From NCBI GenBank assembly GCA_001775055.1, contig MFBU01000007.1:1683-65682 (forward strand): a DNA stretch of 64,000 nucleotides. Reading direction: 5' to 3'. Position 1 is the first letter of the stretch. Each line of letters starts with the position of its first letter. The DNA is from Candidatus Curtissbacteria bacterium RIFCSPLOWO2_02_41_11 (GTDB lineage Bacteria; Patescibacteriota; Microgenomatia; Curtissbacterales; GWA2-41-24). The notes under the pieces are model-generated. The model was not told where the DNA came from, ran no database searches, and was given only the letters and a program-made list of their open reading frames with translations. Of this stretch, positions 9,122 to 37,152 are shown in pieces. A program made the translations under genes and the position numbers.

Positions 9122-9601
9122 TTATCCTTCATTTTCGAACTTGGATATTTTGTCAACCCTTCTCTGATGGCGACCACTTTCAAACTTGGTATCAAGCCAG
9201 ACAGAAACTGCCTTTTTGGCATCATCTGCCGATAGAAACCTAGCACCAAGTGACAAGATATTTGCATCATTATGCTCGCGAGCAAGTCGAGGAATCGAAG
9301 ATCCTGAGCTTGTCGAAGGACCTCCATAATAAACCGCTGCTCTTATCCCTTTTACTTTATTGGCAGCAATTGCCTCCCCTTGACCGGAACCGCCAATGAC
9401 TATCCCCACATCATCGGGTTTACCCTGAGCGTGGCTTTCCGCCACGCGAAGGGCGCAAGGGATTACAAAATCTGGATAATCGTCATCTTCATTAAGCTCA
9501 AATGCCCCCATGTCCTCAACCTCCAAACCTTTGATCTTAAGATACTGGATCAACTGTTTTTTAAGATAAAATCCAGCATGATCGGCCGCAATGTAAATCA
9601 T
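9122..9601 (-). CDS. rpiB: ribose-5-phosphate isomerase B
   Basis: 159 aa; 'IYIAADHAGF', 'GIVIGGSGQGEAIAANK', 'LAREHNDANILSLGARF' RpiB/LacAB signatures; small repeat-like insert (~9270-9325, 'PSTSSGSSIP'). Confidence 0.85.
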   Translation of the reverse strand: MIYIAADHAGFYLKKQLIQYLKIKGLEVEDMGAFELNEDDDYPDFVIPCALRVAESHAQGKPDDVGIVIGGSGQGEAIAANKVKGIRAAVYYGGPSTSSGSSIPRLAREHNDANILSLGARFLSADDAKKAVSVWLDTKFESGRHQRRVDKISKFENEG

Positions 9602-9622
9602 CTATTTTGAGTATAACTGAAA

Positions 9623-9686
9623 ATATCAGAGGAGCGCCATTGACATGAAGAACCGAAGGTTCTGTGTCAAGGCGACCTGCTGATAT
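9623..9686. repeat. family-A MITE-like repeat, copy 2 ('atatcagaggagcgcc...ggcgacctgctgatat')
   Basis: near-perfect TIRs, internal hairpin 'gaaccgaaggttc'. Confidence 0.75.
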
Positions 9687-9736
9687 TCCAGATTACAAGG
9701 TTGGCGAAATATGCGCAAATTGACCAAAGTTAATTG

Positions 9737-11065
9737 TTAAGAAACTAGATTTTTGAGGTCAAAATTAGCGTCTGCAAGACTACCCTTATGGACAGAAATA
9801 TCAATCTTCCCTTTAACCGCCATCGTTAGAGGCCCGACTTCGGCAGGATTATTAATGACAGTTGCCCCGACAATCCGCGTAGTTCCGCTAATTTCCTTAA
9901 TAAAGATTCTTGTCATCTTTCCTTCCGCGACTGTTCCGCGTGTTACAACTTCATCGGCAAAACTCTCGTCTGTTACTCCGATAAACGAACAATGGCCGCC
10001 CGCCTCGACTCGCGGAGACTTAGCCGTTCCAGTCGACCGAGATGTATCGACGCGAGGCCGGTCAAAAAAATCAGCGCTGTATGAAGAAGCCGTTTCAAAA
10101 ACCGTTCTTACACCGGCAATTGTTTTACCAACCGCCAAGCCCTGGCTGGTCGCATTAGCCCAATTTCCCATTATATGCTGTCTTTTAAAAATCACATCCC
10201 AAAACTCGGCGCAATCGCCGGCCGCATAAATATCGGGTACATTGGTTTCCAGGTATTCATTGGTAACAATCCCCCGATTGACCTTAATGCCACTCCCCTT
10301 AAACCAATCAAGATCAGTTTTAATCCCAACCCCAATCCCAACAATATCCGCTTCAAAAGTCTTCCCAGACTTGGTAACTACCTCCCTAACAACTGGAGTC
10401 CGGTCTCTGATAGAGATTGAACTTCGCAGTTCTGCGACTTCTTCATTAGTCAAAACTTTGACACCATTTTTCTCTAAGGTTTTTTGTAAAACTTGGCTAG
10501 AGTCTCGATCTAATTTTCCCTGCCAATAATAATCCTCTATTACCAAAACCAATACATCCTCCACTCCATTTGCCCGAAAACACGTCGCAAAATCCAGACT
10601 GATAAAACCACCGCCAATAATAACTGCTTGTCTAGAATTAACAACTTGCGCCAGAATTGCATCCGCATCATCTAACGTCCGTAGATAAAAAACATTACCA
10701 AGATCATCTCCGGTAATCGGCAGTCTGATAACAGAACCGCCGGTGGTAATTAAAAGTTTCCCATATTGATACTCTCCACCAGTGGAAACTTTGACTCTGT
10801 GGCTTGCCGACTCTAAACTGTCGGCCTTTACACCCTTAACAAACTCTATATTCTTTTCTTGATACCAGCTTGGTTTCTTCAAAAATAATTTATCTCTTGC
10901 GATTTCGCCACGGAGATAGTTGGAAAGCAAAATTCGGGAATACTCCTCATAAGGTTCATCACTGACAATGGTAATTGAAGATTGAGGTTTTAATGATCGA
11001 AAAACTTCCGCCGCCGTTGTCCCTGCCGCTGAACCACCTACCACCAAAAGATCAACCGACTTCAT
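9737..11065 (-). CDS. FAD-dependent pyridine nucleotide-disulfide oxidoreductase (NADH-oxidase / ferredoxin-reductase-like) with C-terminal extension
   Basis: 442 aa; FAD-binding 'DLLVVGGSAAGTTAA', second Rossmann 'AVIIGGGFISLDFA', 'AAGDCAEF' motif. Confidence 0.7.
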   Translation of the reverse strand: MKSVDLLVVGGSAAGTTAAEVFRSLKPQSSITIVSDEPYEEYSRILLSNYLRGEIARDKLFLKKPSWYQEKNIEFVKGVKADSLESASHRVKVSTGGEYQYGKLLITTGGSVIRLPITGDDLGNVFYLRTLDDADAILAQVVNSRQAVIIGGGFISLDFATCFRANGVEDVLVLVIEDYYWQGKLDRDSSQVLQKTLEKNGVKVLTNEEVAELRSSISIRDRTPVVREVVTKSGKTFEADIVGIGVGIKTDLDWFKGSGIKVNRGIVTNEYLETNVPDIYAAGDCAEFWDVIFKRQHIMGNWANATSQGLAVGKTIAGVRTVFETASSYSADFFDRPRVDTSRSTGTAKSPRVEAGGHCSFIGVTDESFADEVVTRGTVAEGKMTRIFIKEISGTTRIVGATVINNPAEVGPLTMAVKGKIDISVHKGSLADANFDLKNLVS

Positions 11066-34992: not shown

Positions 34993-35448
34993 CTATTTAA
35001 CCTCCACTTTAAACTCGACTGCTTGAGTTATGTCGAGTGAAGCCTCCTGAGTTGAGATCAGACTAATGGAAACTGAAGCTTGGCTTGGAATAGAAATCGA
35101 GGTTGACTGATTGTTTAAATCCTCGCCCCAAAAAAGTTTGGTATCGCCCGAAGTTCTCCTAAGTAAGTATGTTTGGGTTCTATCAGTCGGATTATTAATT
35201 ATCAAAATACCAAGATACGCCTGGGAAGGACCCTGTTTGCTAAAGGAAATTCGGTAACTATCCGCGTCTTGAGAAAATTCCATCCCCGGAAATTTTTCAA
35301 CCTGAGATACCACTAAAAACTGACTCTGGCTTTTAACACCGGCCACGCGGGCAAAATTCTTAGCAAAGAAAAAAGGCGTGGCTATTAAACCAACAAGTAA
35401 AACTACAGCCATGAAATTCAGAGTAATTTTCAGAAAATGATTATTCAT
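34993..35448 (-). CDS. hypothetical secreted/anchored protein
   Basis: 151 aa, N-terminal TM. Confidence 0.3.
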   Translation of the reverse strand: MNNHFLKITLNFMAVVLLVGLIATPFFFAKNFARVAGVKSQSQFLVVSQVEKFPGMEFSQDADSYRISFSKQGPSQAYLGILIINNPTDRTQTYLLRRTSGDTKLFWGEDLNNQSTSISIPSQASVSISLISTQEASLDITQAVEFKVEVK

Positions 35449-35464
35449 ACTAATCTATCGTTTA

Positions 35465-36290
35465 GCGTTAATCGGTTACGAAGCCAGTTTCGTTTACCTG
35501 CCTGCCAAGCAGGCAGGGCGGTTACGTTTTACGTCTGACGCCTCACGATACGGGCGTCGTCACCCTAACCGTCTGACCTTAACCCGCGCTCCTTGCTATC
35601 TCTACCTCTTTTTCAATATCAACGGCAAAAACCCAGGAAAAGTTGGCCGCCACCACAAAAGCTATAATGGCAATCTGCGCATAGGTTACTCCCAGAATCG
35701 TCGAGATAACTAAAAAAGCCACAGAAAGCCAAAGGAAAACGAGCCAAATGGCCGCCTGATGATAAAGGTGGTAACTTGGAGCAACTAAGCTTTCCAAATT
35801 GAGTCGAACTAGTCTGGCATGAAGAGTTGGATGGATGTGGCTTTCATGAAAAAAGTGGGCACGCACCAAAACTATAATTGTGCCCAGGGCGGCTATTGAA
35901 AACATCGCTAAATTCGAATAATTTTCGGCAATAGTGTAATTGGCCAAATCGGTAAAGTGAACAGATGGCAACACCTTAAAAATTTGGCCATTGACAAGAG
36001 TTATGGGCATTTTTAAAAAATAGATGACCAGAAAAAGCCCGAGCATTTTACCAAAGATCAAGGCTGCAGCCGGCATGATCGCCTCATCAATTAACTTGGC
36101 TAGCGATTTGGTGATCATACTCTAAATATAGCAGATTCCGGAAAGCAGATGGTTACGGTGACGATACCCGTTTCGTGAGGCGTTTTGGGTCTTACGTGTT
36201 TATTGGTTTTTACGATTAACGTAACCGATAAACGATACGAGCATCGTGACCCTTCAGCTCTAAACGAAACCCAGGCAAACTGACTTCGCC
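35465..36290. mobile_element. candidate non-autonomous cassette: ~100-bp imperfect inverted repeats flanking one membrane-protein gene
   Basis: left arm 35531-35575 'acgtctgacgcctcacgatacgggcgtcgtcaccctaaccgtctg' is reverse-complement-similar to right arm 36146-36197; outer segments also match ('cgaag(c/t)cagttt', 'cggttacg'). Confidence 0.5.
35579..36118 (-). CDS. hypothetical 5-TM membrane protein (cargo of IR-flanked cassette)
   Basis: 179 aa; no known domain. Confidence 0.35.
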   Translation of the reverse strand: MITKSLAKLIDEAIMPAAALIFGKMLGLFLVIYFLKMPITLVNGQIFKVLPSVHFTDLANYTIAENYSNLAMFSIAALGTIIVLVRAHFFHESHIHPTLHARLVRLNLESLVAPSYHLYHQAAIWLVFLWLSVAFLVISTILGVTYAQIAIIAFVVAANFSWVFAVDIEKEVEIARSAG

Positions 36291-36315
36291 ATATCTCACC
36301 CTTTACATTTTAAAC

Positions 36316-37152
36316 TCATGGTAATTTTTTAGCATACTGGCTGGAAATCCAGCCTTGTTTATCCTCAAATTTAACCTTGACCCAATCTTTCGTCTCCTGA
36401 ATAATTTCCAGCTCGTCTCCCGTCTTGACCCTGCCAATTTCCGGTGAGTCGAGTGAGGCTTCTTTGCGCACTCTCAAAAACCCTGTCGGAGTAGCTAAAA
36501 TCCGCACTTTTTGAACTGATAGTGCAGGAACCGGTGAAGGTTGAACTTGGGGATTTTTGGCTATTTCCGAGGCCAAAGTGACATCGGCAACTACCTGATA
36601 TTTATTTGAGGCTTTAACAGCAAACTCACGATTAATATAACCAGCCTTAGTAAGGGTAATTTTATGTTCGCCTTCTTCAAGTTTTTCGACTAAATATGGA
36701 GTTTTGCCGACTAACTTACCGTCCATAGTAATCTCCACTTCACTCGGCATTGATGAAACAAAAAGACCCCTTTTACCACTTTCAAGCCAAAGAGTCTCAC
36801 CAGACTCGGCCAAAAAATTATTGGCAAGCTCCCGGTTAACGACCGTTAAAGTTCCACCGCTCAAAGTTATTTTTTCGACAAAACTAGCCTCACCAGCCGT
36901 AATTTTTAGCAAATATTCGCCAACTTTAAGCTGATCGGAAAAAAACGGGGTTTTGCCAAGGTGCTTACCATCAAGAAAAACCGAAGCCTCGGGAATAGAA
37001 GTAATCTGAAGCGCTGCCGGTTTGGTCGTACCGATGGCACTGCAACCGAAAAAAATAGTAGCTAGTAGCAGGTAGCTGGTAGCTGGTAGCAAGACTTTTA
37101 GGACTTTAGCTTTAGTCGTTAAATGTTTAGCTTTTGACGATATGAAAGGCAT
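36316..37152 (-). CDS. lipoprotein with PEGA domains and C-terminal SH3b domain
   Basis: PEGA-like 'ITSIPEASVFLDGKHLGKTP' and 'EITMDGKLVGKTPY'; C-terminal 'GDELEIIQETKDWVKVKFEDKQGWI' SH3b-like; start set at internal Met so the ORF does not run over repeat copy 3. Confidence 0.5.
   Translation of the reverse strand: MPFISSKAKHLTTKAKVLKVLLPATSYLLLATIFFGCSAIGTTKPAALQITSIPEASVFLDGKHLGKTPFFSDQLKVGEYLLKITAGEASFVEKITLSGGTLTVVNRELANNFLAESGETLWLESGKRGLFVSSMPSEVEITMDGKLVGKTPYLVEKLEEGEHKITLTKAGYINREFAVKASNKYQVVADVTLASEIAKNPQVQPSPVPALSVQKVRILATPTGFLRVRKEASLDSPEIGRVKTGDELEIIQETKDWVKVKFEDKQGWISSQYAKKLP

Follow-up and report, generated by a model that had tools for sequence, protein, structure and literature searches.

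Two copies of a dispersed palindromic repeat family around a resident membrane-protein gene of Candidatus Curtissbacteria

The subject of this report is a gene for a 179-aa membrane protein, together with the two repeat elements on either side of it, in a 64,000-nt stretch of contig MFBU01000007.1 of Candidatus Curtissbacteria bacterium RIFCSPLOWO2_02_41_11. The whole stretch is referred to as the window; positions are coordinates in it, and L-numbers denote the loci and contigs retrieved for comparison. The two elements are most probably independent copies of a dispersed repeat family that lie around a resident gene, and not the ends of a cassette. A 20-nt core (ACGAWACGGGCRTCGTSACC) and about 65 nt of conserved surroundings recur in metagenome-assembled genomes (MAGs) of approximately ten bacterial groups, and in relatives of this bacterium the gene stands at the same locus with both elements, with one, or with neither. 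Mobilisation of the family by a trans-acting enzyme, in the manner of repetitive extragenic palindromic (REP) sequences or miniature inverted-repeat transposable elements (MITEs), is slightly favoured.

Anatomy of the two elements

The inverted repeat had been put forward in an earlier, sequence-only reading of this DNA, and it is real. The strongest ungapped pair in a repeat search of the region joins 35538-35575 to 36146-36183 (38 nt, 87%), and it is the best non-self match of either spacer within the whole 64 kb. Local alignment of the left spacer (35449-35578) with the reverse complement of the right spacer (36119-36315) gives a score of 51, against 15 ± 2 with a maximum of 23 for shuffled sequences (n = 500). 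The 45-nt core described in the earlier reading (35531-35575 against 36146-36197) exists as a repeat, but gaps are needed beyond the 38 ungapped nucleotides.

An outer inverted block of 39 nt (74%) pairs 35458-35496 with 36229-36267. The arms match in direct register as well (35545-35565 and 36232-36252, 3 mismatches in 21), because each of them is an imperfect palindrome of two inverted half-units. In a global alignment of the left arm with the reverse complement of the right one, the similarity runs from TCGTTTAG to CGTCTG / CCATCTG, over about 120 nt per arm and around a variable centre. Each spacer contains one complete, imperfectly palindromic element of about 120-140 nt. The two elements are in opposite orientation, and their better-conserved halves face the gene.

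The features of the locus are listed below, where alpha and beta are the two variants of the core, ACGAWACGGGCATCGTSACC and ACGAWACGGGCYTCGTWACC, respectively.

35458..35584, no strand assigned: left element, about 125 nt, with the plus-strand order beta half-unit (reverse complement), centre, alpha half-unit; based on the alignment with the reverse complement of the right copy and on a profile match at 35544-35577 (E = 2.8e-07), and on the comparison of its filled site with the empty site of a relative (L130)
35474..35493, minus strand: left beta core, GGTTACGAAGCCAGTTTCGT on the plus strand, which is ACGAAACTGGCTTCGTAACC on the minus strand
35497..35517, no strand assigned: left central hairpin, CCTGCCTGC-CAA-GCAGGCAGG, copy-specific, in the variable centre
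35538..35575, plus strand: inner inverted-repeat arm of the left element (38-nt pair, 87%)
35545..35564, plus strand: left alpha core, ACGATACGGGCGTCGTCACC
35579..36118, minus strand: 179-aa gene, the only open reading frame (ORF) between the arms, with about four membrane-spanning segments
36125..36133, minus strand: extended -10-like box, TGCTATATT, located between the gene and the right element; its end is 6 nt from the ATG
36139..36275, no strand assigned: right element, about 135 nt, between the stop of the PEGA/SH3 gene and the -10 box of the 179-aa gene; based on profile matches at 36185-36145 (minus strand, E = 4.9e-08) and 36212-36254 (plus strand, E = 9.6e-10) and on the alignment
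36146..36183, minus strand: inner inverted-repeat arm of the right element (38-nt pair)
36157..36176, minus strand: right alpha-type core of the gene-proximal half, ACGAAACGGGTATCGTCACC on the minus strand
36232..36251, plus strand: right alpha-type core of the outer half, ACGATACGAGCATCGTGACC

The left element occupies the entire spacer that separates the 179-aa gene from the 151-aa gene downstream of it, and both the stop codon (35579-35581) and the last Gly codon (35582-35584) of the 179-aa gene fall inside it. The 20-mer of its beta core is identical in a Thermodesulfobacteriota locus (L099). The palindrome noticed earlier in the left arm is present as the central hairpin, of which the relative L006 carries a variant shorter by one base. 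The GC content is 0.525 for 35500-35699, against about 0.38-0.45 in the neighbouring intervals.

Chance similarity, or the ordinary terminators of convergent or adjacent genes, would suit two arms that are both intergenic and have hairpins, and convergent terminators had been named as an alternative from the start. The probability of this explanation is negligible. The alignment score stands far above the shuffle maximum, and the profile matches described below have E values down to 1e-09, the similarity being that of a large repeat family. Furthermore, the PEGA/SH3, 179-aa and 151-aa genes are all on the same strand, and neither arm has a stem followed by a T-run on the minus strand, which is the transcribed one. 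An origin of the arms from a transfer RNA (tRNA) or transfer-messenger RNA was also sought, and none was found near them. Rfam 15 returned for 35400-36350 at E <= 10 only one chance microRNA match, inside the gene.

The sequence-only reading also had outer blocks, with 35479-35495 paired with 36263-36289. An outer block is real, but its homologous pairing is the one given above, 35458-35496 with 36229-36267. The block at 36263-36289 (CGAAGTCAGTTT...TCGTTT on the minus strand) resembles the beta core minus three bases and has no match in the family profile search at E <= 10; it may be the remnant of a further half-unit, or a chance match.

The enclosed gene is resident

ORF calling agrees with the earlier observation that the arms flank exactly one gene (35579-36118). 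Its product had been described as a protein with five transmembrane segments, in place of which a hydropathy scan gives approximately four hydrophobic segments. Neither this 179-aa protein nor the 151-aa protein has a match in Pfam or NCBIfam. The gene has 237 homologues with 60-96% identity, and the named ones are all from Candidatus Curtissbacteria; an identical protein was found by exact look-up on contig MFBH01000052.1 of assembly GCA_001774895.1. The order GroEL, bPH, M23 peptidase, PEGA/SH3, 179-aa gene, 150-aa gene, UbiA, GT4 and PMT_2 is conserved in the relatives. In comparison with the relative L001, the region of the gene is 81.2% identical and that of the neighbouring PEGA gene 80.4%. 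Therefore, the gene shares the history of its neighbours, and it is a resident gene of the Curtissbacteria envelope neighbourhood, not cargo.

The relatives differ in the presence of the arms. Both arms are found in L127 (98% identical DNA) and, wherever the contig extends far enough, in L135-L140 (identical protein). Only the left arm is found in L006 (91% DNA and 96% protein identity), with 1 mismatch in the 38-nt core stretch; the upstream region of this relative is completely different and is without the right arm. In L130 (87% protein identity), L001, L002, L004 and L131-L133, the gene is at the same locus with neither arm.

In the relatives, only 5-7 nt lie between the stop codon of the 179-aa gene and the gene that follows. 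The empty site of L130 and L001 reads ...AGC GCA TAA TTTTT ATG..., with the two genes 5 nt apart, and the filled site in the window reads ...AGC GCG GGT TAA GGTCAGACGG...GATAGATTAGT ATG.... Judged from these two sites, a new stop codon, preceded by an additional Gly codon, has evidently come in with the left element in place of the original one, and the next gene has been moved 130 nt away. The side-effects of such an event would be a structured intercistronic spacer that splits two formerly adjacent genes, and a C-terminus of the 179-aa protein that is changed by one residue. For the annotation this means that the gene should not be called cargo, that its stop codon and last residue come from the repeat, and that a structured spacer of 125 nt now stands between two genes that were once closely adjacent.

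In the sequence-only reading, the locus was taken for a MITE-derived, possibly mobilisable single-gene cassette, or for a gene captured between two repeat copies. A repeat of the MITE or REP kind, with a gene between two of its copies, is indeed observed; the cassette or captured cargo is contradicted by the synteny and by the armless relatives. In a composite mobile cassette, the inverted copies would delimit a mobile unit with the 179-aa gene as its cargo (a MITE-bracketed composite, a mobile insertion cassette or a pdif module). Such a unit would account for the fact that inverted copies of one family, the sole copies in 64 kb, bracket exactly one gene. It is nevertheless highly improbable, for several reasons. 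Firstly, whether or not arms are present, the gene keeps its position and is conserved throughout Curtissbacteria, and it has diverged as much as its neighbour; where a 0.8-kb unit was expected to be present or absent in the syntenic region, the relatives carry the gene without flanking repeats, or in L006 with the left arm only. Secondly, this one-arm state shows that the arms were gained or lost one at a time, and two arms with different histories are incompatible with a unit moving as arm-gene-arm. Thirdly, there is no target-site duplication at 35465 and 36290, where it had been suggested to look, or at the redrawn boundaries of either element or of the pair; the longest shared flanking word is 3-4 nt. 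Fourthly, a 27-mer specific to the arms matches only this locus in the JGI metagenomes, so that other loci with the same arms and different cargo, as might be predicted for a cassette, were not found there.

Finally, the similarity between the arms does not exceed that between the arms and copies in other phyla. The left gene-proximal half (core 35545) and the right outer half (core 36232) each agree with a half-unit of Nealsonbacteria (L081), at 46 and 45 of the 60 anchored nucleotides, respectively, and the two gene-proximal half-units of the window agree with each other at 40 of 60. Because the half-units are no closer mutually than to copies elsewhere, the inverted repeat of the window represents similarity at the level of the family and no recent duplication.

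An invertible segment, in which site-specific recombination at the 38-nt inverted repeats turns the gene around as a phase-variation switch, would also be in keeping with inverted repeats around a small membrane-protein gene. The likelihood of this is very remote. The seven contigs of the same species (L127, L135-L140) all have one orientation relative to both neighbours, no recombinase is found among the Pfam-annotated genes within 10 kb, and the repeats are only 87% identical and part of a dispersed family. Inversion would also not uncouple the gene from its promoter, because the -10 box lies inside the segment.

This box (TGATATATT, TGnTATATT) occurs at the same distance from the ATG in L130, L131, L132, L002, L004 and L006. 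All relatives examined keep it, and a Shine-Dalgarno-like sequence is absent from 36116-36133 of the window and from the equivalent positions. The conserved position of the box suggests that the 179-aa gene has its own promoter and a nearly leaderless mRNA. The right element would be absent from the primary transcript of the gene, because the -10 box lies downstream of it.

A repeat family in many bacterial groups

The degenerate core pattern ACGAWACGRGYRTCGTSACC was scanned over one genome per GTDB species. It matched at least 120 stretches, against a rough chance expectation of a few tens of hits, as estimated from the degeneracy of the pattern and the size of the database under the assumption of uniform base composition. 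Among the matches listed, 61 of the 111 with enough flank share a consensus of about 65 nt, aAaaaCGAA.gaCGTAACCGaTaG-core-GTtACCgTaAc. A profile made from these 61 copies, none of which is from Curtissbacteria, finds three half-units in the window, with E = 3e-07 to 1e-09, and has no further match there.

At most loci a strong match is paired head-to-head with a weaker match on the opposite strand. The full two-half elements that were extracted number 35 (31 of them aligned); they are 114-147 nt long, and their cores are 30-63 nt apart. In a typical element the cores are about 50-57 nt apart, around a variable and often AT-rich centre, and are embedded in GGTNAC/GTNACC hexamers. A coding role of the runs of GGTNAC hexamers was considered and rejected, as by inspection the frames are broken by stops in many copies.

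According to the record titles, the hosts include Nitrospirota, Omnitrophota, Thermodesulfobacteriota/Syntrophia, a PVC-group bacterium, Planctomycetales, Fibrobacterota, WOR-3, Tritonobacter and Subteraquimicrobiales, as well as Nealsonbacteria and Doudnabacteria of the Candidate Phyla Radiation (CPR). One copy is on a closed chromosome of 2.4 Mb. A complete element is also found on a contig of a Mu-like phage (L128 1640-1765, IMG/VR UViG_3300028837_000796), where it lies between an unannotated ORF of 359 aa and the gpT major-head gene (PF10124, E = 1.9e-115), upstream of the latter. A Mu-like phage is thus a possible vehicle for the spread of the repeat between phyla.

The family appears to be undescribed. 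Eighteen loci with good copies have no family match in Rfam 15. A search of the accessible literature with strings of the repeat sequence yielded nothing relevant, the only matches being primers and S. pombe telomere oligonucleotides, and a search by keyword yielded general work on REP sequences and their RAYT enzymes, in which this family is not described. A good copy has no BLAST match among the PLSDB plasmids and INPHARED phages, which also argues against a resemblance to the inverted repeats of the Tn3 family.

Sequence conservation and base-pairing

In the alignment of 31 elements, RNAalifold finds no compensatory changes, but only invariant pairs. There is also no element-specific complementarity: the inner and outer stem segments of an element match one another no better than they match segments from other elements, the observed mean being reached in about 1,470-1,500 of 2,000 permutations. 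The base at core position 5 (A or T) changes without regard to that at position 12. In 28 of the 31 elements, core position 12 of the partner half is a pyrimidine, in contrast to the purine demanded by the search pattern, and in 27 of the 31, core position 17 of this half is T or A. Therefore, two core variants, alpha and beta, are present in inverted pairs.

In the long hairpin formed by the two halves, some mismatched positions are conserved: at core position 12 an A faces a purine, and position 17 is usually mismatched. The local stem within a half, ACGA(W)/(W)TCGT, has 4-5 bp and a loop of 6-8 nt, and its fifth pair is without covariation. Conservation is weak at the four positions that precede the core (consensus aTaG, variable). 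Taken as a whole, the conserved primary sequence is more readily explained by protein recognition than by a structured RNA.

Genomic setting of the copies

Fifty of the 55 copies scored are extragenic. Among 50 copies for which both flanking ORFs were called, the neighbours of 37 are co-directional, those of 7 convergent and those of 6 divergent, and many copies fill an otherwise tiny spacer. Their orientation relative to transcription shows no significant bias (24:13, p = 0.10). The neighbours are unrelated housekeeping genes, such as those for an ATPase-like subunit, SecA-like and MurB-like proteins, transketolase and efflux pumps. When the 787 ORFs within 3 kb of 60 copies were clustered all-against-all, no recurrent neighbour family was found; the largest clusters span 3 loci and consist of LemA-like or sensor proteins, or of spurious ORFs that read through the element.

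Copies also occur as half-elements (L117, L047, L029, L122) and in tandem. A Nitrospiraceae MAG (CAYPOT01) has an array of at least four 120-nt units, with a run of N within it, between genes on the same strand (L069 5043-5551, CAYPOT010000001.1). In the same MAG, copies are found on at least 10 contigs and have extra conserved flanks, about 200 nt in all, and several contigs end 40-100 nt from a copy, which looks like the effect of an assembly-breaking repeat.

The elements may be regarded as cis-acting sites that serve the host, either through protein-binding cores or through an mRNA hairpin that acts as a stabiliser, processing site or partial terminator. Such mRNA roles have been shown for some E. 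coli copies of REP sequences and bacterial interspersed mosaic elements (BIMEs), and a service of this kind would be compatible with a mobile origin. In accordance with it, the 20-nt core is near-invariant across phyla in surroundings that vary, and the copies are preferentially located between co-directional genes in apparent operons. Both elements of the window also fold as long imperfect hairpins (-45 to -49 kcal/mol for the more stable strand), which on at least one strand are more stable than those of shuffled sequences (z = -2.6 to -4.1). On the other hand, close relatives differ in the presence of the arms at the same locus, the neighbouring genes are functionally unrelated, and the orientation bias is not significant. 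Compensatory changes, element-specific complementarity and a T-run terminator on the transcribed strand are all absent, and the right copy is upstream of the -10 box and would therefore be outside the primary transcript of the gene. A host-serving role is thus rather unlikely as the explanation of the elements, although the core could, alternatively, be the binding site of a conserved host protein.

Comparison with known repeat systems

The REP sequences, BIMEs and REPINs (REP doublets forming hairpins) of Proteobacteria are extragenic palindromes and inverted doublets that are mobilised by RAYT/TnpA_REP enzymes of the HUH-Y1 type (PMC6006769, PMC3116915, PMC3337134). The architecture of the present family is closest to that of the BIME and REPIN elements. 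Like them, it is short, non-coding, extragenic and present in multiple copies in several MAGs. As in a REPIN, two inverted copies of a motif and a spacer can form a long imperfect hairpin, and the alpha and beta variants in inverted pairs recall the Y and Z motifs of E. coli. Copies that are single, halved or in tandem array, that are mostly between co-directional genes and that differ between relatives at one locus are further likenesses to REP sequences and BIMEs.

The differences from these systems are also clear. The published rule set for REP sequences has GTAG or GTGG 0-2 nt 5' of the hairpin foot, a stem of 7-20 bp and a loop of 2-5 nt (PMC6006769), whereas the family has no conserved GT[AG]G tetranucleotide at the foot of the hairpin, and its local stem and loop, as given above, fall outside those ranges. 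No RAYT gene was seen within 3 kb of the 60 copies scanned for recurrent families. REPIN-RAYT systems are lineage-specific and mostly inherited vertically (bioRxiv 10.1101/2022.05.22.493013), whereas this family is shared by about ten groups of phylum level, as named in the record titles, and by a phage contig. Unlike REPINs, moreover, it shows only two copies in 64 kb of a small genome.

The elements resemble MITEs in that they are small, non-coding and polymorphic in presence and absence, in that they are palindromic overall, so that their termini, blurred as these are, would be inverted repeats, and in that a gene may come to lie between two copies, as happens in MITE-bracketed composites and mobile insertion cassettes. 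They differ from MITEs in the lack of target-site duplications and of sharp termini, and no related full-length insertion sequence (IS) was found in the 8-kb loci. Their conserved parts are internal cores and not the extreme ends, and the bracketed gene is native to the locus.

The subterminal hairpin ends of IS200/IS605 elements and their ORF-less derivatives (palindrome-associated transposable elements, PATEs) offer a further parallel, as these need no terminal inverted repeats and make no target-site duplication. Recognition through small imperfect hairpins with sequence-specific feet, as in IS200/IS605, would fit a sequence conserved without covariation. In contrast to IS200/IS605, no TnpA or TnpB gene was found near any of the 60 copies, the ends are not differentiated as left and right ends (LE and RE), and no conserved target tetranucleotide was identified.

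The attC sites of integrons, which bound single-gene cassettes, are imperfectly palindromic, measure 57-141 nt and have conserved mismatches. If the elements were attC sites, the gene would be an integron-type cassette, and the likeness is real in so far as they too are imperfect palindromes whose mismatches are conserved across copies; like attC sites and the pdif modules of Acinetobacter, they superficially bound a single gene. There is scarcely any probability in this interpretation. No GTTRRRY or RYYYAAC core site is present on either strand of either element, the two elements are in opposite orientation, and neither an integrase nor an Xer-type context is found nearby. Elsewhere the elements occur singly between housekeeping genes and have no association with accessory cargo, and the 179-aa gene is syntenic in the relatives.

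A possible mechanism and the evidence for and against it

The mobility of the element is inferred because of the polymorphism in its presence and absence, its multi-copy and array behaviour, its indifference to neighbours and its raised GC content. Under the reading preferred here, in which a resident gene has come to lie between two members of a dispersed repeat family, the element would be a non-autonomous mobile repeat of the REP/BIME/REPIN or MITE type, and an enzyme supplied in trans would recognise the conserved cores and copy the element. A small local hairpin (ACGA, loop, TCGT) is possible within each half, and a long one with mismatches for the element as a whole. Because the halves could form small single-strand hairpins, an enzyme of the HUH/Y1 type is one candidate, by analogy with REP-RAYT and IS200/IS605 (PMC6006769). 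The flanking of the gene would then be a by-product of two insertions into a variable, insertion-prone spot, with a prior of 50% for opposite orientation.

Several observations weigh against this reading. The 3 kb around 60 copies revealed neither a transposase nor another enzyme that could mobilise the element, and none is among the Pfam-annotated genes within 10 kb of the locus in the window. The termini of the element are blurred and differ between host lineages, with the conserved blocks internal. Across 30 elements no target-site duplication is detected (mean of 5.5 for the flanks of the same element, against 5.0 ± 0.9 in the cross-pair control). Without target-site duplications and crisp termini, cut-and-paste mobility of the DDE type is not supported. 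As only two copies are present in 64 kb, both at one gene, proliferation within the genome is not shown, and the adjacency of these two copies is unexplained by random insertion. The insertion itself is deduced from sequences that are 9-27% diverged, with no isogenic empty site among them. The phylum labels are those of MAG records, and many copies are on contigs of 40-160 kb. Finally, conservation of the primary sequence across many phyla is unusual for a REP or MITE and could reflect a host function instead.

Autonomous versions of the element were also sought. Where two copies lie 2-7 kb apart, the interval contains nothing but housekeeping genes, such as that for transketolase in L024. Nor did the 8-kb loci show a full-length IS whose ends match the element; no systematic search for one was made.

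By itself the locus is ordinary, with two small repeats on either side of a resident gene. Families of REP, REPIN and MITE type are usually confined to a species or genus, but here the core spans many phyla, including the minimal genomes of the CPR, and a Mu-like phage. It is tentatively proposed, as a possibility that is not the likelier one, that this is an undescribed, horizontally spreading family of the REPIN/BIME kind, whose near-invariant pair of 20-nt cores may be the recognition site of an HUH/Y1-type or phage-borne enzyme. The same proposal would imply a REP-like system in about ten phyla, in subsurface and sediment communities and in CPR genomes of about 1 Mb, that is neither lineage-bound nor vertically inherited. 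If one enzyme family does recognise the core, it would represent an unrecognised DNA-mobilising system common to subsurface communities, and the elements would also account for some of the contig breaks in such MAGs.

Other insertions at the locus and other features of the window

The surroundings of the 179-aa gene contain other inserted sequences in the relatives. In L006, the place of the right arm is taken by a different palindromic element (654-724), just upstream of the homologue of the gene. It is a 97%-identical copy of an element of about 72 nt, GAAAATATCAGAGGAGCGCC...GGCGACCTGCTGATATTCC, that is present in the window at 9618-9690, in the spacer between the ORFs 9122-9601 and 9737-11065. 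This looks like a second MITE-like family in Curtissbacteria. Another palindromic element, with the ends GTCATTCTGG ... CCAGAATGAC, is upstream of the homologue in L132 (approximately 640-730) and in L133. In L001, two extra genes, one of them with a DapB_N domain, are located between the PEGA/SH3 gene and the homologue (1423-2758). The locus is insertion-prone, its upstream spacer holding different palindromic elements (L006, L132) or two extra genes (L001).

On the other side of the gene, an insertion in L004 (5040-8416) parts the 148-aa gene from UbiA. It contains a gene with a PhdYeFM antitoxin domain, an unannotated gene of 265 aa, a reverse transcriptase (RVT_1) and a MazE/PIN pair, and is another sign that the neighbourhood tolerates insertions.

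For the whole window, Rfam 15 at gathering scores returns tRNA only. The only tRNA, at 1455-1527 on the plus strand, is called tRNA-Ile with the anticodon TAT. This anticodon is uncommon in bacteria, in which AUA is usually read with a lysidine-modified CAT anticodon.

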